Source: a virus. Taken from it: DNA of 64,000 bases. The position numbers were made by a program, and so were the translations under genes. Below the pieces are notes generated by a model. That model saw only the letters and a list, made by a program, of their open reading frames with translations, was not told the DNA's origin and made no database searches. Positions 1,801 through 40,002 of this stretch are shown piece after piece. Every line of letters starts with the position of its first letter. Position 1 is the stretch's first letter. The DNA lies in the IMG/VR virus record IMGVR_UViG_3300021142_002226, positions 64,001 through 128,000 of that record. One strand, given 5' to 3'.

Positions 1801-4800
1801 TTAGGCTATATTAGTATTAGTATTTAATATGTTTGCCGCATATTTTGCTTTATCTGCCCAACCTGATTGCGGTGACCCTTCATATATTCTGAAAACCCAA
1901 TCATTTGTATAATTAATATCAGTACTTGTTTTAAAAGTATTAAAATTTTTATATGATGGTAATTCGAGAAGGGTATATTCTAATTGTACCTGCAATGTCA
2001 TATTAGAAAATGCGGCTGTAATAAGGTTTTGAGTATTTTCTGTTTTAGGTATTTCTACTAATTTACTAACACCACATCTACTTAATAAATCAAGCCAAAA
2101 TTTATCTTTATTTGGATTCCAATTAGAATATGTACCAGCGGCTTGTTCAAAGTTAGGTATTTCAATACCTTTACTTTTTGCATAGATAAGTACTTTAGAT
2201 CTTCTACCGTCAGCACCTACCCATTGAACTATACCAGCAGCATAAGTTTGTTTTGGGTCATTATAACTTAACTTTTTATTATATTTTGTTACAATTTTCG
2301 GATTGAAATTAGATTCCACTTTAAAGTTTCCAACTAATGATGCCGCCGCTTCTTTACTAAATCCATTTTGGATATAAAAATTATATGCCAATATAGCTGA
2401 GTTTTTATCATCAGAAACATTGGTATCTTGTGGTACACCTGCAAATGGTGGAAGTTCTTTCATGTTCGGTGCAATAGTTTTTCCATAACTAATATTATTT
2501 TCGTTATTATTTATACCATAAAACACAATTCCATTTTTTTGGTCATAACAACCTAAATATCTATAATTTGCCCCAGCAAGTGTATCAAATTTTAAATCAT
2601 TGTTTGAGCTAACATTTAGAAAAACATATTCTTCAGAATTTTCATTATTAACCGTTATCGTATAAATATTATTCGTATCACTTGCAGTTTGTGATACGTT
2701 TTTATAGTACAACATATAATATGCTTGCCATATATTACTCTTACTATAATCTATAGCATCGGTGTAATCATTTATAAAATTGATTTTAGGGGTTGTTTTT
2801 TTGTTTGGGTCAAATAAATCTGAACCATATGTTGATGCGGCATCTGAAACCAATAATTTTTGCTGTTTTAATTTATTACTTGGCGTTAACAATTTCAAAA
2901 CATCGTCATTAGTCTTAGCTAAACCCAAGGCTGTAATTGTTTTACCTATTTCATTTGTTGATAAATCATCTTTATGAGCATTTAAAAGGTCTTGTAATGA
3001 GTCAGTTGCTGGGTTGAAAAAATATGTTGTTTCTTGTCCTTCCCAATTAGCTTTCAACTGTAATACTATATCAACCATATATATCCTTATCACAGAAGGA
3101 TCTGGATTAGCAGTTGCACCATTAGCAAAATATTTTGCTCTATTATAAACCATAATTAAAACAATCTTATAAATCTCATTTGTTAATGAAAAATGAGATA
3201 CAAGCCAAGAATAAAGTATTTGCATACCATCAAAAGACACATACGTTCTGTTAGCATTCGATTTTTGATAGAATGTACCAAATCCAGAACCAACATTGTT
3301 TCTATCATTATATATTTGCCCAGTAGTAGTATTGTTTGATGTGTTTTGTGCCGAAGTTTTAGTTAAACCTGTCAAAGTTAATTGTAAACTATTCAGAATA
3401 TCACTTTTATTTGTTGTTTTCTTATTAAATGGTTGTCTTACACCCTTAAATGTGGTTGTCATATTATTCGCCGTAATATTGTGCTCAACGTTAGTTATCC
3501 AATAACTACCATAAAATAAAGGTACATTTTTAAGATAAAAATATGTGAGAGGTTGTATCATAACATTACCCATTGATTCTACTTGACAAGTATATGAACG
3601 TGTCTCCATCAAGGAAAATAAATTACCAGAAGCAACTTTTTGTGATGTTTCAGAACCATTATTGGTCAAATTAATTGCAGCTTTTATTGATTCTTCGGTA
3701 TTACTAAATTCACTCGTATCTAATCTAACTTTACTGAACATATTCTGGTTTTTGTTACCAAAATCAACAATAAATGATGTTATTTTACCTGTTTTAACAT
3801 CATCAGGTACTAAATTTTTATTATCATTGAAATAAGGTTTGATTGGTTGTAAATCCAATGGAAATGAACCTGAATATGATGGTTTAGAGTTGCTCGTTAA
3901 TTTTTTACTATCAACGCTTGATGTATGATTGATCCATTGTAAAATAAATGAAGGGTTTGAATCTATTCTATCTATATCTAAATGTGTTCCAAAAATATTA
4001 TTTGCATATTTATCAAGTTCATTGTTAACGTTTGTAATTGGTGATAAATAATCAACATATGTATTCACTGGATGTAAAATAAAATCATTGTGTTGTGCAA
4101 TATCACTGAATAAACCGAATACAGCTTTATTTGTTATCTCTGAATTTATTACATCGTTATCTGAATTGTTTGTTGTCGAAAATTTAAGTTGTAAACTATC
4201 AGACAAAGCTATCAAATCAATTAATATTTCACTACCAATATCGTTATTAGATCGGTCAACTATATTAATATATTCTATTAAATGTTTAGATTGATCTTTA
4301 TCAAAAACACTATTTTCACCTGTATAAGAATTAATTGTTGTATCACAAACGGATATATCTTTGAACAAGTAATTATAAAATAAACCATTATTAATTTTAC
4401 CCAATTCATCTAAAACATTAATAGAATCATATGGGACTTCTAATATTTTATTTGATTTATTATTGAATGCTATATATTTGTCAAAAAGATTTTTTACATT
4501 ATAATATGTTTTAGATTTTAATTCATCAATAGTATTTTCTTTCTGAATTTGTTTTAGTAAAGATGATGCGGCATTAGAATTAAGGAAGTTAGAATTTATA
4601 GAATTTTTTATTGTATCAAGATATAAGTTTATATATTTTACATTTTTATAGTAAAACGTACTTACAAATCCTGTCAAATAATTAGTAATTTCTTTTGTAA
4701 GCAAATTTTTATTTTTTTCAAAGTATTGACCAGCACCAACTATTTGCCATAAGTATGAATCATTACTACTATTATAATTCAAAGTTGTATGAAGATTACT

Positions 4801-10807: not shown

Positions 10808-13800
10808 TTATTTTACAGGAGGAACAATACTTGAATATTGATATGTTAAAATATTATTCGTAGCATTATTTATTGCATTAATTGTAGTACCTGATGGACT
10901 ATTATTAATAGAACTATTAATTTTGGTATTTATTTGACTATAATTTTTCAATCTAACCTTAACACTATAATCAGAATCACCACCTTTTAACATTGTTCCA
11001 GATGATAATTTTAATTTTTGTGGTGTTGATGGATTTGAGTTAGCCAATGAATTAAAAGCTGTATTTGCATATGTTGTGTATGGTGCTGTTAATTTATTCA
11101 AATAAACAGCATTTAAATTATTAAATTCAGTCAGTATACTTTGATTATATTTATCAACATTATTGAAAAAATCGTTTAATATTTTTTTAATATTATCCAG
11201 TTTTTTAGATTTTTGTTTGTCAGTTAAATCAAGTTTATTAATATTTGTTGTATACGATGTCATCATAGCATTTACATGTGTATCTTTGTTTACAAATAAT
11301 GTATTAAAAAAATCCATCATGCTTGCTTCGGATAATGAACTCATAAGATAACCATTTACTTGACCTTTCAATGAATTTAAATTCATTTTAGTTGTTATAT
11401 CTGGGGTTGTGCCTGACAAAATATAATCAATATATGAATCAGTCAAACTGATTGTATAATTTAACACACTGGATAAATTATTCACATTTGTATTGAATTC
11501 CGAATCATTTGAATTAACTGATATTACATTATAATAATCATAGGATGATACACCATTTGCTGTACTGTTTGCTGGAAAAAGCAAATTATAAAGATCTTCA
11601 GTAACACTTGGTGTGTTTTTTTCCATTCTTACTTTTAAAGAATCTTGAGTACTTTTGATTGTAATTTGGTAATTTTGTGAATAATCATTCAAAATTAAAC
11701 CCAGAGTTTTGTTTGAAAATTCCAAAAATTCATGTGATAATTTTTCAAAAACATAAGTCAACTGGTATTTGTTTTGTAAATATGTTCCTTGACTATTAAC
11801 ATTTTTTAATGAAGGTATCAACCCTTGAAATTGGTAATCTACCACATTAGTTTGTTGGTCAAATTGGATTTGAGGTGTGGTAATTGAAAGATCAAAACTT
11901 TTTAATTCATAATTCGTTATATCACCTGTAGTAGTAATATTATTATCAATATCATCATTTTTTGGTAAAACCATATTTGCATCTATAGTTTTGAAATTTG
12001 TGTTATTCAATAACAATGGTGAATCAATAAACGTATTATCATTTGAAATTTGTCTAAAATAGTAGTAACCATTACCTAACATAAATTTAGTATTATCGTC
12101 CGATTTATAATTATAAACACGGCTCAAATCTATAATACTGTTAGATGATGTTCCAGTGTAATTATATATTGTTAAATATTGAGAAAAAGGATCATAACCA
12201 AACAATTGTGATACAGGTGTTTTTATTTTATTTTCGTTTCTAATAATCTCATATAATTGATTAACTTTACTATTTGTTGTTGTACCATCATACCCTGACA
12301 ACACAGCATTAATTCCTGAAAGATAGGTGTTAAATGAATATATATTGTTTGTTTGATCAATATTTTTTTGTTGTTTGGTTAATAATAAATTATTTGTATA
12401 ATTACTAAGTTGTGTTGAAATGTAATTTTGAAAGATTATTTTTAAATCTTTAGAATTCAATTCCTTATTATATCTATCAAATAAACCAGTGTCTATAAAC
12501 CAATATACAAGTAAATCATTATACAATTTATTTGTTATATCTATATTAAAATGTGTGATCAAAGCTTTTGTGTAATCATAATTTGTTGGTTTTTTCAAAT
12601 ACAAACCTGCTACATCTGAAGAATCGTATTCACCATCCGTCATATATCCTGGATTATATGATTGTCCAGTAAATACTGAAGATATTTTTGCTGTTGGGTT
12701 AAATCTTGGTGTTGTATAATACAGCATCTGAGGGTATAAATGTAATTGAGTTCCATAAAGATTATTAAAACTTGAACCACCAAACTGGCTATAATCACAA
12801 TAATCTTTTACATTAACATAGTTACTATATTTTGCTTTAGAACCAAAAAAACTATTAACAGTTGTTGTATCCGTTGTTCCACCAGTAACAATATTTTTAA
12901 TTATATTGTCCATGAATGTTTTATCATCATTATCTGTCGCTCCAGTATAATTTATATTCAATATTTTTGATAATAAAAATGATGATTGATTTGATGAATC
13001 AAATACTAATGAATCAGAATAATTCAAAACATTAGTTATAAACGAATCATAAAAGTTAGTGAATAGTTTTTTATAATTAACATTAAATATTTCAATTGAT
13101 GCGTTCTGACCATATTCTGATATATAACTCGCTTCACCAAAATTTGTGTTAGTCAATAAAGTCCATGCTGTGGTATAAATTAATGGTTTACCAGCAACGT
13201 TTAATTGTGCATTATTATTAACTTTATCATCGAATAGTCTTTGATAATAATTTTGTCCATAAATACCTGGATTTTCCGTTGGGTCGTAAGAAAATGCATA
13301 TGGTTGAAATACAATAGAAATATCATAAATAATACCAACACTCTTAGCCAATGAATAATTATTACCAGACAAATCTATCAAATCTTTTGTTGTTGTATCT
13401 GGAACACCAATGGTGCCTTTTGGAACATCGTATGTAGAATCTGGTATTTGGTATTCTTTAGCTTTTTGTACAATCGGTATTAAATCGAGAGTATTATTAT
13501 CAAAAAATGATGTTTCTTGATTTACTAATTGTCTTTCTACTGGATCAATATTAGCGGAAGTTCTTGAATCATATACATCAGCATTTGCATAATAATTGAA
13601 TGATAATGCATTTTGTAATTCATTTATAGGTGTTCTTAAACCTGATCCACCAATATATTTAAAACTTAAACTGACGTTAGCGATCATTGGTTGTACACCT
13701 ATACCTTCTGGATTTAAATCAAAAACCAAAGGTTCATATGATATATTACAAGAATTTATCAAAATTTTTGTGTTATAGAAATCGCCAATTCTTAATACGC

Positions 13801-16800
13801 AAACAGGTGGTTTACCAAAAACTGTATTTGTTGCGTCACATGATTCATTCTGTGAATTTAATATTGTATCACCAGGTCTAAGACACTGTTGTAAAAAAGT
13901 TAAACGTGAGTTCAACCCTTCTGGAGTCATAGAGTGAAATGCTGGTGTAAAATATTTCAATTTTTCTTTCACCGAATTATATACAGTTGGGGTATTCGCT
14001 TGTAAATATTCAAAATAATCCGCCTCAGTGATTAACCTATTAAGAATTCTTTGCGCTATTTCTCTTTTAGTTATATTTGTGGCGTTTGTCGGTTGTTGGC
14101 TTGATACCTGCGTTGGATTTGCATTAGTTTTTGTTTCAGTTTTTGGTGGATCTGGATTAACTTCCAATGATACTTTTAGGTTAACCTTTCTTGAATACGA
14201 AGCTTGTATTGACAAAACAGAACAAACTATATCAGCTTGACTGTATGATTGTATTTTAGGTTGCAAACAACCAACAAGATCACTTGTAACATTACTATAT
14301 GTTTTACCCTCAGCAGTAGTTATATTACCACCGAAAAAATTTATAGCTGTTAATAAAAGTTTTCTATTATCTTCTGTGTCAGTACAATAATATGTAACTG
14401 TATTTGGAGCTTTACCATATGGTATCCTTACCATAGGTATTGTAGTAAATGAAGCAGTCAATACATTTTCAGGTGTACTAACAGCTTTCATGGAATCTAT
14501 CGCACTTATTTGTGTTGGCGAATTTAAAACAAATATCACCTTATCTTTCTTATTCTCACCATTAGAAGGTCTAACAAAACTTACTTTTGTACCAGTCAAG
14601 TATTTTTCAATATTATCTGGTGTTAAAACATCGTTGGTAGTTTCAACAGTCAAATCTTTAAAAATGTTAAATGCTAACCATTTTATAACACTTTTAAATT
14701 TTCTGATACCAAGTTTTGTATTGAAATCAACATCTTGACTATCCAGAGCACTTGTGAATGAATCAACAGTAATTGTTATATTATTACCTCTGTTGTTTGC
14801 ATAACTTGTTATTTGATCTCTAAAATTTGTAAAACTTTGATATAGTTGATAATATGGTGCAGAACCTTTCGGTAATTGGCTAAAATATCCGTCTTCACTA
14901 TTAGAACCTATAACCTGATCATATTTTACGAAATAAGCATATGATTTACCTTTTTTAGATTCAGCAGATTGAACAGATGGGTCAGCAATAGATAGTTTAT
15001 AATAAGTATCAAAATATGTATCGTATGTATTAACATTAGCATCCTCAGTATCCAATGGTGTTTGATTTTCGAAAAATAAATCAGCTTGGATAGTTGGAAT
15101 AATTGGTGGCGTAGTTGTATCCTGAGTTACTTGTGCTGTGGGTTCTTTAGCATCACTTTGATCAAGTTTTGATTTGATATCAGCATTAGCTTTTGTTGTT
15201 TGAATTTCACCAATTACTCTTTCAAAATATGCAATATCTTTATTACTAAAAACACCCCAGATTCTTGCTAATTCAAATATATCAAAATTCGTGCAACCAG
15301 CCCAGAATGAATCAAGTATCTCATCCACTACAGTGTCTGGATAATTCTTTAATTCTTTTTGAGTTAATATATTTAGTATTGATGGATGGTCAACAACAAT
15401 TTTGAATGAAAGGGTACCTTGTCTTTCAGTATTATTATATGTATATATTGGTTCTGGTCTTCCTAAAAATTGATGTGAAGTCCAATTCACAGATGTATCA
15501 TCTGTGAATTTAATATCGTATGGTGGAAACCACATTATTCTACCACCGTTAGGCCCAACTTCAAATGGTTTGAGGTCATAATCCCCTTTCCATTTATTTT
15601 GTCCCCTCCAAGCAAGATTCTCAATTGAGAACATATATTTTTTAGCATTTCCAGCTGATTTATCTGATTTTGTATAATTTATGTTCGTTTCTGATGGGAA
15701 AATACTATAATTGTTATATCTATCCAAAACAGAATTTCTTTCAAGTCTTAATAATTCCGTAAATCTCATCAAATTTAACGTACCAGAATAAGGTCTTACT
15801 TTAGTCCAAGTTCTACAAAATTCTGCATTGTCTCGCATATTATTAACATCATCTCTGGTACCATTATATAATCCAGGTACAGAATAATTATTACCTATTA
15901 CATTACCAGCATCATCCTTTCTTTGTGTTTTTGCAGTAGCTAAAACACCACTACCTTTAGAGTATAGACTATAACCATCAAACAATTTAGTTTTTGTTTG
16001 GTCTATCACCAAATTTATTGGATTACTATTATCATCTGCCTTTTCAAGAAGTCTTTGTGTTTTAAATAATATCGAGCATTCTCTGAAACGGTCATAATAA
16101 TTATCACTACCAGCTTTCGAAAGAATTCTTTCAGCATCGTTATTGTTACTGTCAATTTTACTTACCGTATCGTAATTTATATTACCCTTAGAATCAGATG
16201 ATACTGTTTGAGGATCATAAAATGTTTCTTGATAATCTGTTTTGTGCCATATAAAATCAGTATTTAATGAACCATATTTTGCCGTTTCATTCAACCCTGG
16301 TTCATAATATGTGGTTCCATCAAGATAGTTTGTTGATATAATTTTTGTAATTTCTTCAGGACTCTTAACTTGATCACCCTCAGAATCTTGTAAAGCAAAA
16401 AATGGTGCTGATTTAATATCTCCAAAATAATATCTTGATTGCGGTTTTTTACCGCCAGTCATACCAAGGAAACCTGTAACACCACCGATAGCTTGCAATG
16501 TTTTATCTATCGCTTGGAAAATACCACTTTGGTATTGTGGGTCATAATTGGGTGCATATTTATTGAAATAAATGTTTGAAAATAATTGGAATTTTTGCCC
16601 ACTACCAGTATTACTCAAAAATGCTACATCTTCAGAATTATCATATCCTTGTTTGGACATACCAAAAGCATCATTAAGCAATTTACCTAAAGCTGATTTA
16701 TCTGTTGTTGTAACACTTTGATCTGAAGTATTAAAACATCCTGGTGTAAGTGTAGGTTTACTTTTTAAATTCAAATACGTTATAATATCTGTGGCTCCAA

Positions 16801-17713
16801 CTAACGAACTTGTAAATAATGCTGCATATCCGATTGGATTATTTGGAACTGTTATATTATAGTTTTTAGCAATAAGATTATTTGATGGGTCTTTTAATAT
16901 ATTAATTGCTTGTGCTGGGTCAGCTAACGCATCATTAATATTTGTTAATGGAGAATCTGAAAGTATATTTTGTTGTATTCTTGTTTCGAAAGCAGATTTT
17001 AATTCTAATGCAGCAATATTCATCAATAACGTTTCGTTTTGAAGAACCTTACCAGAATAATTTATATAACTTACAGGGTCAATTGTGAAATCAATAGCAG
17101 AGTTTTTATTTACATTTATTCCAAGGATATCTTGTGGTGTATATTGCGTAACATAATAATCTCTACTTAATTGACCATTATCGTCAACATACGGTGTTTG
17201 TGGTGCATTAGGTTTTAATGTATTTGTATTAAATACATCAAATGTTTGTGGAATATATTTATTTAAATTAGCATTTAGTTTTAATGAATAATCTGAAGAT
17301 AAATCATATAAACTTGAAACAGATTGTAATGTTGGTATTGAATAGTCACTAATCACAGCAAGTTTACCAATACCATCGGCCAAAGCTTGGTACGTATAAC
17401 CTAAACTATCGTTTCCTTCAGTTATAGCTGAAAAATCACTTTTATTTAGAGGTCTATTTCTATTCAAAATTTTATTTCTAACTTTATCAGCTTCACTGGT
17501 TATATCCCCTGGATTTTTTACGCTGAAATTATCAATAACAGTATCCCTACCTAAAGAATATTCATAAGCTTGTAAAGCTCCGATTCCTTCAGTACTAACC
17601 AAACCGAGAACAATATCTGGTGGTGTTTTTAAATTCAATTTTAGAATATTATCTCTAAATTGTTGCGATGTGTTCTTTAAACCAAGTGAACTTTCTGGTG
17701 TTTGACTGCTCAT
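10808..17713 (-). CDS. Very large baseplate protein with two tube-initiator-like domains and a degenerate OmpA-like domain
   Basis: 2301 aa. Tube-like motifs WFPPYDIKFTDDTSVNWTSHQFLGRPEPIYTYNNTERQGTLSF and PPVCVLRIGDFYNTKILINSCNISYEP...ANVSLSFKYIGG. Lies directly downstream of the tape measure gene. Confidence 0.6.
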   Translation of the reverse strand: MSSQTPESSLGLKNTSQQFRDNILKLNLKTPPDIVLGLVSTEGIGALQAYEYSLGRDTVIDNFSVKNPGDITSEADKVRNKILNRNRPLNKSDFSAITEGNDSLGYTYQALADGIGKLAVISDYSIPTLQSVSSLYDLSSDYSLKLNANLNKYIPQTFDVFNTNTLKPNAPQTPYVDDNGQLSRDYYVTQYTPQDILGINVNKNSAIDFTIDPVSYINYSGKVLQNETLLMNIAALELKSAFETRIQQNILSDSPLTNINDALADPAQAINILKDPSNNLIAKNYNITVPNNPIGYAALFTSSLVGATDIITYLNLKSKPTLTPGCFNTSDQSVTTTDKSALGKLLNDAFGMSKQGYDNSEDVAFLSNTGSGQKFQLFSNIYFNKYAPNYDPQYQSGIFQAIDKTLQAIGGVTGFLGMTGGKKPQSRYYFGDIKSAPFFALQDSEGDQVKSPEEITKIISTNYLDGTTYYEPGLNETAKYGSLNTDFIWHKTDYQETFYDPQTVSSDSKGNINYDTVSKIDSNNNDAERILSKAGSDNYYDRFRECSILFKTQRLLEKADDNSNPINLVIDQTKTKLFDGYSLYSKGSGVLATAKTQRKDDAGNVIGNNYSVPGLYNGTRDDVNNMRDNAEFCRTWTKVRPYSGTLNLMRFTELLRLERNSVLDRYNNYSIFPSETNINYTKSDKSAGNAKKYMFSIENLAWRGQNKWKGDYDLKPFEVGPNGGRIMWFPPYDIKFTDDTSVNWTSHQFLGRPEPIYTYNNTERQGTLSFKIVVDHPSILNILTQKELKNYPDTVVDEILDSFWAGCTNFDIFELARIWGVFSNKDIAYFERVIGEIQTTKANADIKSKLDQSDAKEPTAQVTQDTTTPPIIPTIQADLFFENQTPLDTEDANVNTYDTYFDTYYKLSIADPSVQSAESKKGKSYAYFVKYDQVIGSNSEDGYFSQLPKGSAPYYQLYQSFTNFRDQITSYANNRGNNITITVDSFTSALDSQDVDFNTKLGIRKFKSVIKWLAFNIFKDLTVETTNDVLTPDNIEKYLTGTKVSFVRPSNGENKKDKVIFVLNSPTQISAIDSMKAVSTPENVLTASFTTIPMVRIPYGKAPNTVTYYCTDTEDNRKLLLTAINFFGGNITTAEGKTYSNVTSDLVGCLQPKIQSYSQADIVCSVLSIQASYSRKVNLKVSLEVNPDPPKTETKTNANPTQVSSQQPTNATNITKREIAQRILNRLITEADYFEYLQANTPTVYNSVKEKLKYFTPAFHSMTPEGLNSRLTFLQQCLRPGDTILNSQNESCDATNTVFGKPPVCVLRIGDFYNTKILINSCNISYEPLVFDLNPEGIGVQPMIANVSLSFKYIGGSGLRTPINELQNALSFNYYANADVYDSRTSANIDPVERQLVNQETSFFDNNTLDLIPIVQKAKEYQIPDSTYDVPKGTIGVPDTTTKDLIDLSGNNYSLAKSVGIIYDISIVFQPYAFSYDPTENPGIYGQNYYQRLFDDKVNNNAQLNVAGKPLIYTTAWTLLTNTNFGEASYISEYGQNASIEIFNVNYKKLFTNFYDSFITNVLNYSDSLVFDSSNQSSFLLSKILNINYTGATDNDDKTFMDNIIKNIVTGGTTDTTTVNSFFGSKAKYSNYVNVKDYCDYSQFGGSSFNNLYGTQLHLYPQMLYYTTPRFNPTAKISSVFTGQSYNPGYMTDGEYDSSDVAGLYLKKPTNYDYTKALITHFNIDITNKLYNDLLVYWFIDTGLFDRYNKELNSKDLKIIFQNYISTQLSNYTNNLLLTKQQKNIDQTNNIYSFNTYLSGINAVLSGYDGTTTNSKVNQLYEIIRNENKIKTPVSQLFGYDPFSQYLTIYNYTGTSSNSIIDLSRVYNYKSDDNTKFMLGNGYYYFRQISNDNTFIDSPLLLNNTNFKTIDANMVLPKNDDIDNNITTTGDITNYELKSFDLSITTPQIQFDQQTNVVDYQFQGLIPSLKNVNSQGTYLQNKYQLTYVFEKLSHEFLEFSNKTLGLILNDYSQNYQITIKSTQDSLKVRMEKNTPSVTEDLYNLLFPANSTANGVSSYDYYNVISVNSNDSEFNTNVNNLSSVLNYTISLTDSYIDYILSGTTPDITTKMNLNSLKGQVNGYLMSSLSEASMMDFFNTLFVNKDTHVNAMMTSYTTNINKLDLTDKQKSKKLDNIKKILNDFFNNVDKYNQSILTEFNNLNAVYLNKLTAPYTTYANTAFNSLANSNPSTPQKLKLSSGTMLKGGDSDYSVKVRLKNYSQINTKINSSINNSPSGTTINAINNATNNILTYQYSSIVPPVK

Positions 17714-23401: not shown

Positions 23402-26400
23402 TTACAAATTTTCAAATGAAACACTTGTTGGAGTTACATCAAACTCAAGTTCAATAAACTCTAATGCATCAATTGGTTTCAAGAATATTTTACCTGTTAA
23501 GGTATTTCTATCTGTATCAGAAGCTGGATCCAATTTGATTCTAAAATCACTTAGACCTCTTTCTTTTCTAATATTATCCAATATTGGATTAACTAATGAT
23601 AAGAATTGTGTTCTTACAATATCGTCATTTGGATCGAATAATAATCTATTAGAAACAGATATAATAAGTTTTCTTGCTTGAAGTAATAATCTTCTGATAT
23701 TCAATCTGTTAAGAGCTGAATCTCTTTCTTGTAAGTTTCTATTACCCCAAATTACTGTACCAACATCAGAGAAGGTTGCTATTGGGTTAACTCTTGAAGG
23801 ATAAAGAATATCTCTTGCGTCTTGGTCAAGAACAATTCTTGTTCTTTTACAGTTAACTAAACCTCTATTATAACCTGCGGTAGCAAACCAAGGGAATGCA
23901 ACGTTATCGGTATAAGCTAAGTTTCTTACTACTTCAAGAGTAGGTGGTAACCATAGGTAAGCATTGTTTTCAACGTCAGCTATTTGTAACCAAGGATAGA
24001 AAAGAGCTGTATAGTTTGAATCTAAGTTCAAATTATCCATCATATCAGAGATATCATTAGGGAACATCCATTGAGTTGTATCTGCTGGATTTGTATTGTT
24101 ATATACAGATATATCTGGTATTGTTGCGATATAGATTGAATCTAATCTTTTCTCTTCAACTATTGTTATTACCTCTTGTGCTAATTCATTGTTATTTACA
24201 ACATCAATACCTGGAGTTACTAATACATTTATATTAGTTTTTTCTGGGTTTTGGAATGTTTTATAACCATATAGGTAAGCATAGTAATCCGAAGAACCCC
24301 AAGTTTCGTCATATTCAGCATTAGTGAATGAAGCAAAATGTCCATTAACAAAGCTTGATTGTCCAATTCTGTATAAATCACCATTAGTTCTTGTATCTCT
24401 ATAGAAATCCCAACCATCAAATCCTCCAGACATAAGCGCTGTGAATTTTCTTGTTTTGATATCGTAATATGTTTGAGTTGTATCTGTAGCTAAAAGTACT
24501 GGGTCAGTGAATTGTCCATCTCCAACAGCATATAAAGAAGTATCAGCATTTACGTCAAGGTGGAAACCTTTTGTCATACCACCCCAAGGGTTACCTGTAT
24601 TATATGTAATTGTACCAATATTTTCAGCACCAATGAATGATGTTATATCAGCGTCAAAACCATAATCATAGTCACTGAAACCTAAGTAAGTTTTTCTAAC
24701 TTTATCTCCAGAAGATATCAAAGTAGTTCCCAAAGGATTAGTTTGCCATACATCACCAGGTTGATAATACTTAGTTTTGTATGCAATTTCTGGTATAGCC
24801 ACATCAGAATATGTTCTGAAAGAATAACCTTCGAAACCAGCTGGAACAGCATCAGAAGGTGCGTTTGGATCAACATCAATTATGATATATGAACTATTTA
24901 ATGTATATTTGTTATCAAGTGTACCAACTAATCTTCCGATAAAGTTAGAACTTGCTTCATCCATTGTACAATTCAAGTATCTTTCGAATATAACAGGCAC
25001 AGCATCAGTATCAGAGAACGATCTAACCAAAAGGTCAAATGTACCCTTAGCAAGATCTACGTTTGCAATAGAAACCTTAATTTCAGTATTTGCATGATTA
25101 CCATCAGATATAGAAACCACTCTGAATAGATTTTGTGCTTTTCCACCTCTTAACTCGGAAACAAAGAACGGAGTAGAAGGGGCTTGGTATTGGAACATAA
25201 AGTTATTCCAACCACCTGCACCAGCTGGGATATATTTCAATTCAGGATGAAGTCCTTTTATTTTACCATTTAACCAACCTTTTGCAAGTGTTGAATCATA
25301 TGTTTCTTCAACATACATTTCAGTAGTTTTATCGGTATTTGTAACACCAAGTACGTTTTTGATATAATTTCTTTTTGTTTCATCCAAAGAAAGATTATAT
25401 GTGAATGTAGTACTTGTTGTAGTTTTACCTGTTATTGTAATGTCAGCATAAGGATTTGATTCAGCGCTAACAATACTACCATATCCTACAGTTGAACCAC
25501 TAACTAAAAAGTCTAATGTATCATTCACATAAAGACCTTTTCCTCTAATTGTAGAAACCAACATATTATGATATTCTGCATATGGATCAGCAGCATATGA
25601 TGTAACGTATATTTTAACTTTACCAAAGATTGATGTACCGTTTTCATATACATGGTCTGTTGTCATTATGAATGAAACACCACTATATGTTTCAGTCATA
25701 GTATCGTATACAAACGTATCATTTATAAAGTAAGCATCTTCATCGCTTGAAGGTACAGTTGATGGATAAACATAAGAATCAACAGTAGATGGTGCATTAT
25801 TCACATACGTAGAAGTATTACCACCAGTCGTTTTAGCTGCATTTGTTACAGTTGTAACTGTTGCTGAAGGGTTAACACCCCATTTCATTATATCGTGCTT
25901 CCAATAGTTACCTGTAGTACCTGTAGCAGTAGTGTATTTTGCAAAGTAATTGTTATAAGCATTCACAATCAGTGATGAGTCAATACCTACCAAACTTGCT
26001 ATATTTGCAAGAACTGATGTTGATGTTCCTGTTACATTATAAACAGTATCAGTTGTTGTACCTGAGAAACCAAAAGTATAAGATGTTGTTGTAGGTACCA
26101 TTGTGGTTTGATCAACCGCACCGAGCGTTCTAATTGCCCAAGCATCTCCTTTATCGTAACCAGATAAACCAAGAATACGAGTTACGTACAATTGGTTTGA
26201 TTGACTCAAATAATTTTTTGCTATATATGAAAGTTCATATTTAACAATTTGGGTATTTCTAAATTTTTCAGGATTAATTCCACCAAAAACCTTAGAAAAT
26301 TGGTCATAATTTGCAATAGGAATTGGCTGAAATGCTGGGCCTTTTACGGTTTCGCCAGCCGCACCTAAAGTCGTTATACCAATCGTCTCAATGCTGTATG

Positions 26401-26455
26401 TTAAATCTTTCTCTGAAGTGTAAACACCAGGTGACGCATAAACTATATTTGCCAT
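23402..26455 (-). CDS. Contractile tail sheath protein
   Basis: 1017 aa. N-terminal SPGVYTSEKDLT...GETVKGPAFQP; C-terminal PWFATAGYNRG...RVNPIATF..VGTVIWGNRNL...LNRLNIRRLLL...LFDPND. Confidence 0.95.
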   Translation of the reverse strand: MANIVYASPGVYTSEKDLTYSIETIGITTLGAAGETVKGPAFQPIPIANYDQFSKVFGGINPEKFRNTQIVKYELSYIAKNYLSQSNQLYVTRILGLSGYDKGDAWAIRTLGAVDQTTMVPTTTSYTFGFSGTTTDTVYNVTGTSTSVLANIASLVGIDSSLIVNAYNNYFAKYTTATGTTGNYWKHDIMKWGVNPSATVTTVTNAAKTTGGNTSTYVNNAPSTVDSYVYPSTVPSSDEDAYFINDTFVYDTMTETYSGVSFIMTTDHVYENGTSIFGKVKIYVTSYAADPYAEYHNMLVSTIRGKGLYVNDTLDFLVSGSTVGYGSIVSAESNPYADITITGKTTTSTTFTYNLSLDETKRNYIKNVLGVTNTDKTTEMYVEETYDSTLAKGWLNGKIKGLHPELKYIPAGAGGWNNFMFQYQAPSTPFFVSELRGGKAQNLFRVVSISDGNHANTEIKVSIANVDLAKGTFDLLVRSFSDTDAVPVIFERYLNCTMDEASSNFIGRLVGTLDNKYTLNSSYIIIDVDPNAPSDAVPAGFEGYSFRTYSDVAIPEIAYKTKYYQPGDVWQTNPLGTTLISSGDKVRKTYLGFSDYDYGFDADITSFIGAENIGTITYNTGNPWGGMTKGFHLDVNADTSLYAVGDGQFTDPVLLATDTTQTYYDIKTRKFTALMSGGFDGWDFYRDTRTNGDLYRIGQSSFVNGHFASFTNAEYDETWGSSDYYAYLYGYKTFQNPEKTNINVLVTPGIDVVNNNELAQEVITIVEEKRLDSIYIATIPDISVYNNTNPADTTQWMFPNDISDMMDNLNLDSNYTALFYPWLQIADVENNAYLWLPPTLEVVRNLAYTDNVAFPWFATAGYNRGLVNCKRTRIVLDQDARDILYPSRVNPIATFSDVGTVIWGNRNLQERDSALNRLNIRRLLLQARKLIISVSNRLLFDPNDDIVRTQFLSLVNPILDNIRKERGLSDFRIKLDPASDTDRNTLTGKIFLKPIDALEFIELEFDVTPTSVSFENL

Positions 26456-28563: not shown

Positions 28564-29064
28564 ATGTTAGATTTAAAAAAATTATCCGATATTATTGAAT
28601 ATCTGGAATTAATACCAGGTTATAACGATTGTATTTTGAATAAAACATGTTATAGAATTGGTGAATTTTGGTCATTAACCTATGATTTTGAAAAGTTTAG
28701 AAAAAAACTGAACGCAAATTGGGATGAAAACGAAGTTTTAAACTACATATATAAAAATTATAATTATAAAGATAATTTTTTTGTTAAAATTATAGAAAAC
28801 CCAACCAGAAAGAAAATTGCTAAATATGATAATAAAATGCTTTTTTGCGATGGTTTAGATGAAGCACTTATTGGTGTTAGATTTGGTTTTGATGAAAATA
28901 AAAATATAGCGGTTTATGATTACGATAGATGTATAGATTCTATCTTAGCTGAATCGGACGGAGAAATGGAAGAATGTGATGCTATAGAACATATGGAATA
29001 TAATGTTACTGGTGCATATGTTGGTGAATACACTCCATGTTTTTTAACAAATATTGATGAATAA
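28564..29064 (+). CDS. Conserved phage hypothetical protein
   Basis: The track ORF starts at 28465 and overlaps the neck gene; the in-frame ATG at 28564 is more plausible. C-terminal 'DGLDEALIG...AVYD...DAIEHMEYNVTGAYVGEYTP' is a recurrent phage domain. Confidence 0.65.
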   Translation: MLDLKKLSDIIEYLELIPGYNDCILNKTCYRIGEFWSLTYDFEKFRKKLNANWDENEVLNYIYKNYNYKDNFFVKIIENPTRKKIAKYDNKMLFCDGLDEALIGVRFGFDENKNIAVYDYDRCIDSILAESDGEMEECDAIEHMEYNVTGAYVGEYTPCFLTNIDE

Positions 29065-31948
29065 TATACCAATTGAAATACAAGCTAAAGAAATTCTAAT
29101 AAATTACCAAGGATCCAATGATTATTTACTGGAAATAAAAGGTTATTTATTAAGCAAAAAAGCGTTTCCGTTAACTTCAAATATATGTAAATACATAATA
29201 TCTAATCAGAAAGTAAAACCTATTGTTTTGAATAAAAAATATGTTTTACATAAAAGTATTAGAGGTTTTTTAAAAAGCCAATATAAATTAGATTTTATAC
29301 CTGAAGAAATTTTTATTAATAAATTATTAACACGAAAAGTCGATAACCTTCACCTTTGGGCTTGTTTTAATCAAGATTGTAAATACTATTTTTCAGTTTA
29401 TTTGGATAAAAATTGTATCAAAAATAGTAAAACTATTGAATTACCTTCTTTTGATCAGTATGATAGGCCGCCAAAAAAACACCAATTAACAGCAATCAAA
29501 ACTTTATTGGAAAATGATAAATTTATCTTGGCTGATGATATGGGTTTGGGTAAAATGGAATTTGTTGATAACCAATTGTTTACACCATTTGGTAGGAAAA
29601 GAATTGGTGATATAATTGTCGGTGATAAAGTTATTGGTTCAGATGGTAAACCATATAATGTTGTTGGTGTTTTTCCACAAGGTAATAAAGAATTATTTAA
29701 GGTAACCTTTAATGATGGTTATTCTATTTTAGTCGGTGGTGAACACCTTTGGTCTGTTTCAACTAATTGTAATGGTGAAAATAATAAAAATAGAAAAAAT
29801 AGATATATTACATTAAGTACAAATCAAATGCTTGATAAAAATTTGATTTTACAACAAAATGGTTCGGATTGGAATGAAAAAAGACCCTACAAATACTCAA
29901 CATACTATAAAAAAAATAATGGCGCATCTAAATGGCAGATACCTATCGTTAAACCTATAGAATTTTACAATAATTATGAATTACCTATTGAACCATATTT
30001 ATTAGGTGTTTGTTTGGGTGATGGTAACATAAAAAATTCATCAGTAAAATTTGAGATACATAAAGATGATTTTGAAGAATTATTTACAGGTGTTGAATTT
30101 AATGAATTATCACCTGTTGGCAATAGACGATCATGTAATTTAAACTTCGGTAATAAATTACAATTATTAAATATTAATAATAAAACTTCAGATACTAAAT
30201 TTATACCAGATAAATATAAATATAGTTCAATAGTTAATAGAATTGCGATTTTGCAAGGTTTGATGGATACTGATGGTCATTGCATGAAATCAAAAAAAGG
30301 TTTGTTTGCTGGTACGGAATACGCTACGGTATCTGAAAAATTAGCTGACGATATTGCTGAGATAGTTCATAGTTTGGGTGGTATTGTGCGTAAAAAAAGT
30401 AAAATTGGTTCCTATAGAAAGCCAGATGGAACTAAGGTTATTTGTAAAAAATGTTATCGTTTAAATATAAAGATGCCTACAGGTATTAATCCTTTTAGAT
30501 TAAAACGTAAAGCTATATTATATAAAGAACCTGAAAAATATAAAGTTGGTAGATATATTAAGGATATCCAACCTTGTGGTACTGGTGAAGCTGTTTGTAT
30601 ATCAGTAGATAGTCCAGATAAATTATATGTTACAGAACACGCAATTGTAACACATAATACAACATCTACCATTCTTGCTGCGATAACTGGTGGATATAAA
30701 AGGATTTTGGTTGTCTGCCCAGCATCTCTTAAATTGAACTGGAAAAAAGAAATAAGTTTGTATGATAACCCAAACGATATTAGTATTGTAGAAGGTTCTG
30801 ATTTTACATTCAAAAAATGGACTATTGTAAACTATGATATCCTTAAAAACTTCCATAATTTGAAAGAAAAAGGTCAAGATCCAGAAGATGTAAAAGAATC
30901 AATAATCGATTTTTATAAATTTGATTTAGTTATAGCTGATGAAGCACATTACCTTAAAAATGCTACCGCAAATAGAACAAAATTATTTAATGATTTTGCG
31001 ATGAAAATTGGTACCAGATGGTTACTAACTGGTACACCAATAACTAATAAACCAATTGATTTATATAATTTATTATATCTTTGTGAATCCCCACTTAGTA
31101 CAAATTGGGTTGGGTATGTTAGGCGTTATTGTGCTGGTAGACAATTCAAAAGAAAAGGGTCAACACAAAAATATTGGGTAACTGATGGTGCAACAAATCT
31201 TGAAGAATTAAAAGAATTTACAGACGATTTGATCCTTAGAAGGCTTAAAAAAGATGCTGTTGATTTACCACAAAAGACAATAAAACCAATATATTTACCA
31301 TTATCCTCTTCAAGAAGATATCAGGATTATATGGAAGAATATCAAAATTGGTATGATGAACAAGTAGAAAATGGGATTGAACCTAAACCAACAGAACATC
31401 TTACACAATTGATAAAGGTTAGACAATTACTATCTGAAGACAAATTAAGTACAACAATCAATCTTGTAGAAGATATAATTGAAAGTGGTAGAAAAGTTAT
31501 TATTTTTTCATGTTTTTCTAATAGTATTAGAACAATTCATGACCATTTTGGTAAAAAGTCTGTTTTAATTGATGGTGCTGTAAGCGCTAAAAATAGAGAT
31601 ATTGCCGTTGAAAAGTTTCAAAACGATGATAAAATCAAAGTTTTTTGTGGTAACATTGTTGCGGCAGGTGTTGGTTTAACTTTAACTGAAGGTTCTGTGG
31701 TGATATTCAACGATGTTGATTGGACACCAGCAAATCACTTACAAGCTGGTGATCGTGCACATAGAATGGGACAAACGAATGAAGTACACATAATTTATCC
31801 TTTAATAGATGGTACTTTAGATACGGTTATGTACAACAAACTACAGGAGAAAATTAAAAATATTAGTACTGTAATGGGAGATGAAAATAATGATATTTTC
31901 AATGATACATCTATGATTTCTGATGTTATAAAGTCTTTAAAAGATTAG
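29054..31948 (+). CDS. SNF2/SWI2-family helicase containing an intein
   Basis: LADDMGLGK|intein|TT (motif I), VCPASLKLNW, DEAHYLKN, LTGTPITN, ILRRLKKD, GVGLTLT, QAGDRAHRMGQ. Confidence 0.9.
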   Translation: MMNNIPIEIQAKEILINYQGSNDYLLEIKGYLLSKKAFPLTSNICKYIISNQKVKPIVLNKKYVLHKSIRGFLKSQYKLDFIPEEIFINKLLTRKVDNLHLWACFNQDCKYYFSVYLDKNCIKNSKTIELPSFDQYDRPPKKHQLTAIKTLLENDKFILADDMGLGKMEFVDNQLFTPFGRKRIGDIIVGDKVIGSDGKPYNVVGVFPQGNKELFKVTFNDGYSILVGGEHLWSVSTNCNGENNKNRKNRYITLSTNQMLDKNLILQQNGSDWNEKRPYKYSTYYKKNNGASKWQIPIVKPIEFYNNYELPIEPYLLGVCLGDGNIKNSSVKFEIHKDDFEELFTGVEFNELSPVGNRRSCNLNFGNKLQLLNINNKTSDTKFIPDKYKYSSIVNRIAILQGLMDTDGHCMKSKKGLFAGTEYATVSEKLADDIAEIVHSLGGIVRKKSKIGSYRKPDGTKVICKKCYRLNIKMPTGINPFRLKRKAILYKEPEKYKVGRYIKDIQPCGTGEAVCISVDSPDKLYVTEHAIVTHNTTSTILAAITGGYKRILVVCPASLKLNWKKEISLYDNPNDISIVEGSDFTFKKWTIVNYDILKNFHNLKEKGQDPEDVKESIIDFYKFDLVIADEAHYLKNATANRTKLFNDFAMKIGTRWLLTGTPITNKPIDLYNLLYLCESPLSTNWVGYVRRYCAGRQFKRKGSTQKYWVTDGATNLEELKEFTDDLILRRLKKDAVDLPQKTIKPIYLPLSSSRRYQDYMEEYQNWYDEQVENGIEPKPTEHLTQLIKVRQLLSEDKLSTTINLVEDIIESGRKVIIFSCFSNSIRTIHDHFGKKSVLIDGAVSAKNRDIAVEKFQNDDKIKVFCGNIVAAGVGLTLTEGSVVIFNDVDWTPANHLQAGDRAHRMGQTNEVHIIYPLIDGTLDTVMYNKLQEKIKNISTVMGDENNDIFNDTSMISDVIKSLKD
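29555..30658 (+). mobile_element. Class-3-like intein (368 aa) with LAGLIDADG homing endonuclease
   Basis: Inserted in Walker A (GLGK|T). Starts MEFVDNQLFTPFG and ends IVTHN before Thr+1. LAGLIDADG blocks PYLLGVCLGDG and LQGLMDTDG. WCT triplet: EHLW, AVCISV, VTHN. Confidence 0.9.
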
Positions 31949-36795: not shown

Positions 36796-39700
36796 ATGAG
36801 TGAATATAGTATCCCAATGGAGTCTGTGGAAAAGTTTCTTTCTGGTCATGGTGAAGAGAAATATATTGTAAATATTGAATATGAATCTGACACAAATACA
36901 ATATATAAAATCAAAGATATACCAGAACAAGGGATTGTTATTGAGAAAGAATTCTTAAAATCTTTCATGTGGATTAAAAACCTTAATGAAGTTAAAAAGA
37001 TTTGCAACTTTTATCATAACAACGATCTTACCATTAAACTCAAAATGAAGGAGTATGGCATCCAAATTAAAAAGCTAAGACACGATGACCACCCAAGATT
37101 AGTGAATGGTTACACATATTTAGTTACATGTGAACAAGGACACAAAAGAATGCTATCATTTTTTGCTGATGGTGGTATAAATTTCTACAACAAGTTTGAA
37201 AAGAGAATTAATTTAAAGGAATATTTTACAATATTATCCCCAATTGAACAGTATTTTATCAGTACTGGTAATCGTTTATATAAAGGTATTGAAGATTATA
37301 ATGAGTTGACAAAACTTATTTTTGACTTGGAAACAACAGGCTTGGATCCAAATATAGAAAAAATATTTTTGATTGGTTGTAAAACTAATAAAGGATATGA
37401 AAAATTGATTGAAATCGACATAAACGACCCTGAATCTGAAAAAAATGGGATTATACAATTCTTCAATGAAATCGATGCAATAAAACCAACTATCATTGGT
37501 GGTTACAATAGTGCAAACTTTGACTGGTATTTCATATTCAAAAGATGTCAAATTCTTGGTATTGATATTGAAAATATCGCAAAGACTCTGAAAAAAGATA
37601 AACAAATATACGTTACTGAACAAATACTAAAACTTGGTAACGAGGTTGAAAGATATATCCAAACAAATATGTTCGGATATAGTATTATCGATATTAACCA
37701 CTCAACCAGAAGAGCACAAGCTATTGATTCTGATATGAAATTTACCAGATTGAAATATGTTTGTAAATATAATGATGTTGCTAAATCAAATCGTGTATAC
37801 ATCGTTGGTGAAAATATTGGAAAATATTGGAAAAGCGACAAGAAATATTATTTTGATGATAAAAGTGGTTCATATTCTGAAATTAAACCAAAAGTTGAGT
37901 ATATGGATTTTATCACGAGACAGATTGTTAAAGATAATCCAGACAAAATATTTATTTTCGGTGATAATGATCTAAGAGAAGGTTTTGGTGGTCAGGCCAA
38001 AGAAATGAGAAACGAAAAAAACTCTATTGGTATTGTCACAAAAAAAGCGCCAGGTACAACTGATGATTGTTATTATAATGATGATGAGTTTGAATTAAAT
38101 AAAAAGAAAATAAATCTCGACCTAAAAATTATAATTAACGAAATAAAGAAAGGTAAATGTATTGTTATACCTTCTTCTGGTATTGGTACAGGTTTAGCTA
38201 AATTACAGGAAAAAGCTCCAAAAACCTTCAAATTTTTACAAAATTCTTTAAACTTATTAAAGGTTTATTGTGATAGTTTTGTAGAATGTGATGGTAAATA
38301 TATTGTTAACAGATACTTGATGGATGACCTTTGGGAAACACTCGAAGTTGATAATATTTACAATCAATCATCATTTATGTTGGCTAAATTAATACCAACA
38401 AGTTATCAAAGAGTATCTACAATGGGTACTGCTGGACTATGGAAAATGTTGATGTTAACATGGTCTTATGAAAATGATTTAGCAATTCCAATAAATGATG
38501 AAAAACGAGATTTCGTTGGTGGATTATCAAGACTGTTTAAAGTTGGTTTTTCTAAGAAATTAAGAAAGATGGACTATTCATCTCTTTATCCTTCTATACA
38601 GCTTGCACATGAGGTGTTCCCATCTTGTGATATAACACATGTAATGAAATCTTTACTTAAATATTTTCACTCTGAACGTTTTAAAGCAAAGAATCTCGCT
38701 AAGAAATACGGTAAAGCTGGTGATAAACAAATGAAAAGTTTTTATGACCGTAAACAATTACCTCTGAAAATATTCATCAACTCAATGTTCGGTGCCCTTG
38801 GAGCACCAACAGCATTTAACTGGGCTGAAATGGATGTTGCTGAAGGTATTACTGCGAGAGCAAGACAATACTTAAGGATAATGGTTAAATTTTTTATGGC
38901 TAAAGGTTATGAACCATTAGTACTTGATACGGATGGTGTTAACTTTATGGCACCAGAATCTGGAGAGGAAAATTTTAGATACATTGGTCTGGGTAATAAT
39001 GAAGCTGTAATTAAAGATAAAGAATACACAGGAGTTGATGCAGTGATTGCTGAATTTAATGATTTATTCATGAAAGGTGAAATGGCATTAAGTTTGGATG
39101 GTACATGGCCGTCAACCATAAATCTTGCTCGTAAAAACTATGCCTTACTTGAAGATAGTGGTAAAGTAAAATTGACTGGTAATAGTATCAAATCTAAAAA
39201 AATGCCAGCCTATATTGAAGAATTTTTGGATAAAGCCTTGGTTTTACTATTAAATGAAAAAGGTTCTGAATTTGTTAACTACTACAATACCTACGTTCAA
39301 AAAATATATAATAAAGAAATTCCACTTTCAAAAATTGCAACAAAAGCAAGAGTTAAAAAAACTTTAGAAGATTATAAAAATCGTGGGCTTAACAAGAACG
39401 GTAAACCATTACCAAAGCAAGCTCATATGGAATTAGCCATAATCAATAAATTAAATATTAATCTTGGAGATACTTTATATTACGTTAATAATGGTACAAA
39501 ATTAACTCAAGGCGATATTCAAACAGTAAAAGTTACAAAAAAAGGTTGGTCAGAAAAAGATATAGAAGATCATATAACTCATTATGGTAAATCACCAGTG
39601 GGTCTAACATCGATAAATAAATTAAATTGTTATATGTTAGATAGCAAAGAATTGGAAGATAAACCAGATATGTTAGGTGAGTACAATGTAGCAAAATATT

Positions 39701-40002
39701 TGGATGCTTTCAACAAGAGAATCAAACCGCTTTTAGTTGTCTTTAGTGAAGATATTAGAGCTGGTTTACTATTAAAAAACCCTTCAGATAAAAAGGATTA
39801 TTTAAAAAATGAGTTGAAGCTAATCAATGGTATACCATATAAAGAGGCTGACCAAGATACTATACAAGATTTATTTACACCATCGGAACTTGAAAATGTT
39901 TACTGGAAAAAAATGAATTATAATCCAAATTTCTGGTTTAATGATAAAATAAACTTTACTGTTCCAGGGTTAGATAGGGTGGTTGAGATAGAAAATATAT
40001 AA
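36796..40002 (+). CDS. polB: Family B DNA polymerase with a macrodomain-like insertion in the exonuclease domain
   Basis: ExoI FDLETTG, ExoII GYNSANFD, ExoIII YLMDD; polymerase motifs MDYSSLYPSI, K..INSMFG, LDTDG. Extra domain of about 120 aa at roughly 37903-38270. Confidence 0.95.
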   Translation: MSEYSIPMESVEKFLSGHGEEKYIVNIEYESDTNTIYKIKDIPEQGIVIEKEFLKSFMWIKNLNEVKKICNFYHNNDLTIKLKMKEYGIQIKKLRHDDHPRLVNGYTYLVTCEQGHKRMLSFFADGGINFYNKFEKRINLKEYFTILSPIEQYFISTGNRLYKGIEDYNELTKLIFDLETTGLDPNIEKIFLIGCKTNKGYEKLIEIDINDPESEKNGIIQFFNEIDAIKPTIIGGYNSANFDWYFIFKRCQILGIDIENIAKTLKKDKQIYVTEQILKLGNEVERYIQTNMFGYSIIDINHSTRRAQAIDSDMKFTRLKYVCKYNDVAKSNRVYIVGENIGKYWKSDKKYYFDDKSGSYSEIKPKVEYMDFITRQIVKDNPDKIFIFGDNDLREGFGGQAKEMRNEKNSIGIVTKKAPGTTDDCYYNDDEFELNKKKINLDLKIIINEIKKGKCIVIPSSGIGTGLAKLQEKAPKTFKFLQNSLNLLKVYCDSFVECDGKYIVNRYLMDDLWETLEVDNIYNQSSFMLAKLIPTSYQRVSTMGTAGLWKMLMLTWSYENDLAIPINDEKRDFVGGLSRLFKVGFSKKLRKMDYSSLYPSIQLAHEVFPSCDITHVMKSLLKYFHSERFKAKNLAKKYGKAGDKQMKSFYDRKQLPLKIFINSMFGALGAPTAFNWAEMDVAEGITARARQYLRIMVKFFMAKGYEPLVLDTDGVNFMAPESGEENFRYIGLGNNEAVIKDKEYTGVDAVIAEFNDLFMKGEMALSLDGTWPSTINLARKNYALLEDSGKVKLTGNSIKSKKMPAYIEEFLDKALVLLLNEKGSEFVNYYNTYVQKIYNKEIPLSKIATKARVKKTLEDYKNRGLNKNGKPLPKQAHMELAIINKLNINLGDTLYYVNNGTKLTQGDIQTVKVTKKGWSEKDIEDHITHYGKSPVGLTSINKLNCYMLDSKELEDKPDMLGEYNVAKYLDAFNKRIKPLLVVFSEDIRAGLLLKNPSDKKDYLKNELKLINGIPYKEADQDTIQDLFTPSELENVYWKKMNYNPNFWFNDKINFTVPGLDRVVEIENI

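Follow-up and report, generated by a model that had tools for sequence, protein, structure and literature searches.

A complete, folded DUF7831 domain was shown to be nested in the proofreading domain of a complete viral replicase, the family-B DNA polymerase (PolB) encoded by open reading frame (ORF) 36796-40002(+) of the stretch of DNA analyzed here. This stretch, the window, comprises 64,000 nucleotides (positions 64001-128000) of a 190,177 bp IMG/VR virus record with an estimated completeness of 64%. A tail sheath and a giant tail-lysozyme protein are encoded, which identifies the source as an uncultured jumbo myovirus; its G+C content is about 29%. The reading of DUF7831 best supported by its sequence and its model is that of a macrodomain-like α/β domain reduced to three strands, whose homology to macrodomains is likely but unproven. 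Its putative role in the polymerase concerns ADP-ribose-type adducts on DNA.

The host protein is a complete PolB with a proofreading domain. Profile searches against the PDB matched it to the archaeal PolBs Pfu, KOD and Tgo at E-values of about 1e-30. The full-length AlphaFold2 (AF2) model had a predicted local distance difference test score (pLDDT) of 86.8 and a predicted template-modeling score (pTM) of 0.77, and Foldseek matched this model to the 9N and KOD polymerases (E 1e-31, target-normalised TM-score about 0.7).

Nucleotides 37903-38270(+) read in the frame of the polymerase as 122 residues, beginning MDFITRQ. They were matched by the Pfam family PF25176 (DUF7831) with 144-149 bits, against a gathering cut-off of 27, over model positions 2-117 of 118, and also by phrog_2072, a family of unknown function. 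Insert-less sister polymerases of ~929 aa align continuously on either flank with a single gap opposite the insert, and this alignment puts the insertion at about residues 372-489 (nt 37909-38262). The insert lies ~15 residues ahead of the ExoIII helix, in a surface loop of the 3′-5′ exonuclease domain. The secondary structure of the domain is the same in the full-length model (pLDDT 85-93) as in the model of the domain alone, and the short strands flanking it (residues 367-370 and 496-499) look like the two-stranded stalk of a nested domain. A preliminary description of this DNA had noted about 120 extra residues, lying between ExoII and ExoIII in a PolB that was intact in other respects, and the in-frame residues, the Pfam match and the gap in the sisters all bear this out. 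It had also located the motifs correctly (ExoII GYNSANFD, YLMDD at 38314 and K416 at 38041). The span it gave, 37903-38270, holds the correct residues, although its end falls 2 nt into codon 492 and the domain by Pfam occupies 37897-38244.

Other origins of the extra residues were considered and rejected. An intein or intron was discarded, as the frame is continuous and no Hint or intein Pfam match was found in the host polymerase; the insert begins M-D-F, with no Cys, Ser or Thr at its start and no His-Asn end or H-N-[CST] junction, in agreement with the earlier remark that intein termini are absent. Recent acquisition was rejected on G+C content (0.283 in the insert against 0.297 in the gene). 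An internal start at the Met of the insert was set aside, the upstream bases having no clear ribosome-binding site and the Met not being conserved in a distant clade. In one relative, P0092, intein and LAGLIDADG Pfam domains were found elsewhere in the polymerase.

DUF7831 is a large, uncharacterized family that occurs in phages, giant viruses and bacteria, with at least 2,723 clusters (50% identity) matching at E ≤ 1e-3. In most members the domain either stands alone as a protein of ~130 aa or forms one module of a giant multi-domain protein. Stand-alone genes of this size were found in about 100 cultured phages, among whose hosts are Caulobacter, Rhizobium and Ruegeria, and the family is also carried by giant viruses of amoebae and by crAss-like phages. 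No paper naming DUF7831 was found, the family being catalogued only as a DUF, and the neighborhood of the stand-alone homologue in phage phiM9 held hypothetical genes only. All 13 invariant columns of a 31-sequence homologue alignment (G, N, G-x-G-G, N, G, K, G-x-G-x-G-L, A-P) are present in the polymerase copy; N391, G396 and the Lys (K47 of that alignment) are invariant in stand-alone homologues too. The three motifs singled out in the preliminary description fall on these family-invariant positions, K416 being the invariant Lys.

A total of 121 related polymerase clusters were sorted by insert state: 74 had an intact insert, five a decayed one and 42 none. The insert, for which a sporadic distribution had earlier been considered, is instead conserved across a large polymerase clade. 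The 74 intact clusters span 47-99% polymerase identity, yet N391, G396, R405, N409, G464, L470, A474, P475 and T477 never varied among them, and K416 was Lys in 72 and Arg in two. The insert was about as conserved as the rest of the enzyme, in most cases slightly less so and in the most distant clade more so. In a tree computed without the insert columns, the insert-less polymerases grouped together as one clade (support 1.0), whose sister was a sequence with an intact insert, while decayed inserts arose at least three times within intact clades. Because the root of this tree is not known, one gain and one clean loss fit equally. Decayed inserts were 102-128 residues long and had lost their motifs, with 17-40% identity to the present protein in the insert versus 53-65% elsewhere. 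In these relatives (P0098, P0100, P0101, P0106 and P0092) the N, Gly-loop and Lys motifs were lost and the C-terminal A-P-x-T helix motif was largely kept. Since motifs and conservation level are maintained in the 74 intact inserts, the DUF7831 insert has a function of its own that is maintained by selection. This function is accessory to polymerization and dispensable for the enzyme, as one sister clade has no domain and the motifs decayed in several lineages. In the insert-less clade, the matches at several IMG/VR loci (L149, L152, L160-L163 and others) were ~48 residues longer (~977 vs 929 aa), which suggests that some lineages hold a further small insertion at some place in the gene.

The AF2 model of the domain alone, built from 31 homologues, had a pLDDT of 94.2 and contained three strands and five helices. 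DSSP placed strands of at least three residues at positions 15-22, 41-47 and 86-88, and identically in the full-length model. In an exhaustive structure search of 48,161 chains, the 13 best matches were all macrodomains, at modest Z-scores of 5.1-6.9. The TARG1-like group (Poa1p, DarG and TARG1) held ranks 2, 3 and 5, with Poa1p second, and the DarG structures 5m3i and 7omu were among the best matches. A structure search of the Atlas retrieved a 'Macro domain-containing protein' cluster at a TM-score of 0.63, and a language-model search of the Atlas, which serves as a lead only, retrieved two clusters, one named 'A1S_2505 family phage non-structural protein' (0.88) and the other with Macro in 11% (0.79). 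The exhaustive search supports the view that the DUF7831 model is closer to macrodomains than to any other solved fold.

The motifs of the insert follow the order of the macrodomain loops: F-G-D-N...G-x-G-G-Q-A would correspond to loop 1, the T-K-K strand to the Lys strand of DarG and TARG1, and P-x-x-G-x-G-T-G-L-A to loop 2. Sequence comparisons were made with a set comprising T4 Tk.4 and PhiKZ gp104 (proven phage erasers), their viral relatives and 80 bacterial DarG-like loci. When the filters were switched off, 22 of 109 macrodomains of the DarG/AdfM-like kind scored more than 5 bits with the DUF7831 hidden Markov model (HMM), the highest at 13.3, compared with 0.15 sequences per replicate for shuffled controls and none for reversed ones. 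These weak matches were in register over the helix, the strand and the P-x-x-G-x-G loop; because the 109 sequences are interrelated, the 22 matches amount to few observations rather than 22 independent ones. The DUF7831 profile gave one chance match (E 3.7) against PDB sequences, and a first scan of the genome contigs with PhiKZ gp104 gave none.

Domain partners of DUF7831 elsewhere were of two main kinds. On the one hand, fusions were found to domains of the ADP-ribose network: to DUF4326, YAcAr SLOG, cpYpsA SLOG, YpsA SLOG and ADP-ribosylglycohydrolase, to NADAR in two of three giant proteins scanned, and to DUF488-N3 in proteins of ~1,500 aa. On the other hand, the domain was fused to nucleic-acid enzymes, namely an SF1/PIF1-like helicase, MutL_C and XRN. 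A GT90 glycosyltransferase fusion was also found. In P0254 (693 aa), DUF7831 is nested between XRN_N and XRN_M of an XRN 5′-3′ exonuclease, a second nuclease-nested case. The giant proteins P0180 (3535 aa) and P0264 (2393 aa) contain both NADAR and DUF7831, one of them also cpYpsA SLOG. NADAR removes ADP-ribose from guanine, and this pairing may be a two-eraser arrangement. Fusions of DUF4326, SLOG, Macro and NADAR have been placed by the Aravind group in a viral NAD+/ADP-ribose network linked to replication and restriction-modification components (PMC9503650; PMC7824862). The fusions observed here place DUF7831 in this viral NAD+/ADP-ribose conflict network, leaning to nucleic acids.

No canonical Macro, NADAR, DUF4326, cpYpsA or DarT was found in the phage record, which was searched as it stands at 64% completeness. 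Outside the window, a 98-aa frame at positions 179416-179604(-) of the record (the same as L316:1429-1725(-)), adjoining a GNAT acetyltransferase ORF, matched the N-terminal part of Pfam ART-PolyVal (positions 7-63 of 140; E 5.7e-8, 34 bits). ART-PolyVal is the ADP-ribosyltransferase of phage polyvalent proteins. The frame may be a truncated or frameshifted gene, and because of this match the phage may also write ADP-ribose marks.

Fold, motifs and context suggest that the DUF7831 domain of the polymerase would bind an ADP-ribose-type group. It would recognize, and probably cleave, an adduct of this type on the DNA that the polymerase meets and, acting in cis at the replication fork, would oppose defense toxins of the DarT kind that ADP-ribosylate DNA. 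Such an adduct-directed job appears most likely because the family is repeatedly fused both to ADP-ribose-processing domains and to nucleic-acid enzymes. An anti-DarT eraser role is plausible because stand-alone phage macrodomains do this: AdfM (PhiKZ gp104, T4 Tk.4) strips DNA of the ADP-ribose added by DarT2, and the phage is protected (PMC13309987; PMC13716836). AdfM was also the first case, reported in 2026, of phage macrodomains undoing DarT ADP-ribosylation of DNA, and it acts as a free protein in trans (PMC13309987; PMC13716836); the proposed action in cis is drawn by analogy with it. The whole chain, from a DUF7831 domain in the replicase to removal of ADP-ribose-type adducts at the fork against DarT-type defense, is tentative, with a likelihood that we place a little below even. 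A wider proposal is rather doubtful, namely that DUF7831 would be a minimal new class of macrodomain removing ADP-ribose adducts from nucleic acids, built into the replicase in this clade of jumbo phages to clear or read DarT-type lesions and taken up independently by XRN nucleases, by helicases and by giant proteins that phages and giant viruses inject.

A number of observations weigh against the proposed eraser role and against the macrodomain likeness on which it draws. The model has three strands where the macrodomain sheet has six or seven; because of this, the elements that grip adenine in canonical macrodomains may be missing. Foldseek searches of the domain against the PDB gave no match at E ≤ 0.001, the best rows being TIM-barrel and phosphatase noise, and against viral models reached Macro/Tk.4 only at E > 3 and a TM-score of about 0.5. 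The structural check advocated in the preliminary description, which expected a macro fold from AlphaFold and structure searches, therefore came out divided: the model was confident and the exhaustive search put macrodomains on top, but Foldseek against the PDB was blank and no full sheet was present.

The direct sequence comparisons point the same way. Pfam Macro (PF01661 and relatives) did not match the polymerase at E ≤ 1, and NCBIfam DarG (NF048014, antitoxin_DarG) did not match any of four DUF7831 proteins at E ≤ 10, whereas the positive controls PhiKZ gp104 and T4 Tk.4 matched the DarG model at 4.9e-40 and 2.5e-7, respectively. PADLOC likewise returned no match for DUF7831 proteins. Alignment by hhalign was not significant, with a probability of 1-2% to the AdfM/DarG-like alignments (P 0.022 to the T4-AdfM-like and P 0.05 to the DarG/PhiKZ-AdfM-like set). 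These non-significant alignments pair F-G-D-N...G-G-Q-A with H-G-C-N-C...G-S-G-I-A, in global mode T-K-K (K416) with the P-T-K of DarG/AdfM-like macrodomains, and P-x-x-G-x-G-T-G with P-P-L-G-C-G-N-G, the last region being aligned in the same way by hmmsearch (P-P-L-G-C-G-N-G-G). At the position of the Asp of TARG1 'GLD' (G-G-L-D in DarG), the polymerase inserts have Ala (48 of 74) or Ser (26 of 74), so the earlier report that this acidic residue is replaced extends to all 74 inserts. Judged by sequence, DUF7831 is not a member of the DarG or TARG1 families. The original designation of the insert as a TARG1/DarG-like macrodomain is hence retained in part: the exhaustive structure search favors macrodomains, but membership in the Macro or DarG sequence families is not upheld, the fold has only three strands, and the correct family name is DUF7831.

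Biological context adds further difficulties for an anti-DarT eraser. The primer end is what the exonuclease domain acts on, whereas it is the template that carries DarT lesions. This phage has no known host or DarTG link. Neither DUF7831 nor Macro was found in five sister phages without the insert, for three of which the record is at least 93% complete; the function is therefore dispensable, with no sign of replacement in trans. Moreover, DUF7831 is fused to RanBP zinc fingers, a eukaryote-type module, and we know of no DarT that operates in eukaryotic hosts. Because of these fusions and the presence of the family in giant viruses of amoebae, DarT products alone cannot be the general DUF7831 substrate.

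The likeness to macrodomains could instead be a generic Rossmann-like resemblance, with the domain acting on nucleotides or on the ends of nucleic acids in a chemistry unconnected with ADP-ribose, for instance as a phosphoesterase or transferase acting with DUF488/DUF4326-type enzymes. No profile match to any Macro family was significant, the fold has only its three strands, and the family is fused to a GT90 glycosyltransferase; DUF488-N3 and DUF4326, with which it often occurs, are members of a phosphatase-like superfamily (PMC9503650). Such chemistry is nevertheless unlikely, given that macrodomains take all 13 best places among the 48,161 chains, that the three motifs are collinear with macrodomain loops, that HMM scores on real macrodomains exceed those on shuffles, and that the family co-occurs with NADAR and ADP-ribosylglycohydrolase.

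Alternatively, DUF7831 might act on a soluble small molecule derived from NAD+ or ADP-ribose (a second messenger, ADP-ribose-1′′-phosphate or an O-acyl-ADP-ribose-like compound) and not on DNA adducts, its nesting in the polymerase securing only early, stoichiometric expression or localization at replication sites. The stand-alone form of most members would suit this, as would the occurrence of the family in giant viruses and its second-best structural match, Poa1p, a small-molecule ADP-ribose-1′′-phosphatase. Networks of SLOG, DUF4326, NADAR and Nudix-type proteins have also been proposed by the Aravind group to process mainly low-molecular-weight ADP-ribose derivatives in phages (PMC9503650). 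Nesting in an essential enzyme is costly, however, yet the motifs are intact in 74 polymerase clusters, and independent nesting in or fusion with XRN, SF1 helicase and MutL_C points to a polymer-linked substrate; a soluble ligand is accordingly considered improbable.

The domain might also be a non-catalytic reader, binding an ADP-ribose-type or nucleotide ligand or modified DNA and altering the behavior of the polymerase (stalling, switching between polymerase and exonuclease sites, or recruitment of partners) while the adduct stays in place. The replacement of the acidic residue of the TARG1 Lys-Asp pair by Ala or Ser and the reduction of the fold fit a reader, and archaeal PolBs, the closest solved relatives, are textbook examples of polymerases that sense damaged template bases and stall. 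The invariant polar residues N391, R405, N409, K416 and Q400, in contrast, look like a catalytic constellation. The T4 AdfM sequence also has neither the Lys nor the Asp and yet protects T4 against DarTG2, so the absent Asp is no proof of inactivity. We rate a pure reader as improbable to the same degree as a soluble ligand. Lastly, an insert with no function of its own, left behind by a gene that had entered a permissive loop of the polymerase, would account for the five related polymerases whose inserts kept their length and lost their motifs, for the clade that works without an insert and for the matching G+C content, but it is highly improbable in this phage, whose copy keeps every family-invariant residue, belongs to an insert about as conserved as the catalytic polymerase body, and shares N391, G396, R405, N409 and G464 with all 74 clusters.

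No description of the polymerase-embedded form was found in the literature searched, in agreement with the preliminary description, whose author knew of none; the text searched of the Aravind jumbo-phage and NAD-ADPr surveys makes no mention of a Macro-PolB fusion. Free proteins are the one form in which phage macrodomain erasers are known. If the eraser role were true, this would be a replicase with an on-board anti-defense eraser, a different solution from free AdfM, in which the activity, whether counter-defense or repair, would be present at the very site where replication is halted by the lesion. A first function would also be assigned to DUF7831, and thereby to thousands of proteins in phages, giant viruses and bacteria, which would help to read the fusion proteins with NADAR, SLOG, DUF4326 and DUF488. 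Close relatives with intact, decayed or absent inserts form a natural control series, the decayed ones serving as loss-of-function controls.

Elsewhere in the window, giant ORFs of 1991 and 2301 aa were found at 1801-7776(-) and 10808-17713(-), the former with a phage tail lysozyme domain near its end and the latter without a Pfam match. The tail sheath protein (23402-26455(-)) has 1017 aa, unusually long for a sheath. A 964-aa protein at 29054-31948(+) has a P-loop region like that of a primase or helicase loader, its C-terminal half is SF2 helicase-like, and its PHROG matches were mixed (DNA helicase, terminase-like P-loop, primase). The positions of the polymerase gene, the nested domain and their motifs are given in Table 1.

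TABLE 1. Coordinates in the window of the polymerase gene, its nested domain and the conserved motifs of both.
Feature	Position (nt)	Strand	Residues and remarks
Family-B DNA polymerase gene hosting the insert	36796..40002	+	1068 aa; Pfam DNA_pol_B, DNA_pol_B_exo1, RNase_H_2; phrog_262 DNA polymerase
ExoI FDLETTG	37321..37341	+	aa 176-182; D177, E179 invariant in polymerase alignments
ExoII GYNSANFDW	37501..37527	+	aa 236-244; N238, D243 in invariant columns
DUF7831 domain	37897..38244	+	Pfam envelope aa 368-483; PF25176 E 1.8e-42; phrog_2072
Loop 1 region FGDND...GFGGQA	37957..37998	+	aa 388-401; N391, G396 invariant
Strand ending T-K-K	38032..38046	+	aa 413-417; K416 is the conserved Lys, nt 38041-38043
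Loop 2 region SSGIGTGLAKL, then KAPKTF helix	38173..38229	+	aa 460-478; G464, L470, A474, P475, T477 conserved
ExoIII YLMDD	38314..38328	+	aa 507-511; Y507, D511 invariant; aligns to ExoIII helix of Pfu/KOD
Polymerase motif A DYSSLYPS	38572..38595	+	aa 593-600; D593, S596, L597, Y598, P599 invariant
Polymerase motif C DTDG	38926..38937	+	aa 711-714; D711, T712, D713, G714 invariant

Compared with known systems, the phage host protein has the same whole fold and all the Exo and Pol motifs of archaeal-type PolBs (Pfu, KOD, 9N, Tgo). Those enzymes have ~67 residues and no inserted domain between the aligned ExoII and ExoIII blocks, whereas the phage polymerase has ~235. Archaeal PolBs check template bases ahead of the active site and are a known case of a template-inspecting polymerase; their uracil read-ahead pocket belongs to the N-terminal domain, and its effect is limited to the stalling of synthesis. 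An intein in a phage or archaeal PolB gene is likewise an extra in-frame block within the polymerase gene, but the present insert is, unlike inteins, a conserved folded domain of another family. From DUF7831/phrog_2072 members at large, this copy differs in being nested in the exonuclease domain of a replicative polymerase.

AdfM (PhiKZ gp104, T4 Tk.4) and DarG are, like DUF7831, small α/β domains, and AdfM is also phage-encoded. Their motifs are collinear with those of DUF7831: the N after strand 1 with a Gly-rich loop, the T-K strand (in PhiKZ gp104 and DarG) and P-x-x-G-x-G-x-G. However, AdfM matches the NCBIfam DarG model and DUF7831 does not, and DUF7831 is ~30-40 residues shorter than AdfM and DarG, with fewer strands and without the Asp after loop 2. 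Nor does it belong to the sequence families of TARG1 (C6orf130/OARD1) and Poa1p; its sheet is reduced, and the position of the TARG1 catalytic Asp is taken by Ala or Ser. Finally, AdfM is a free protein that acts in trans, whereas the DUF7831 domain described here is part of the polymerase itself.

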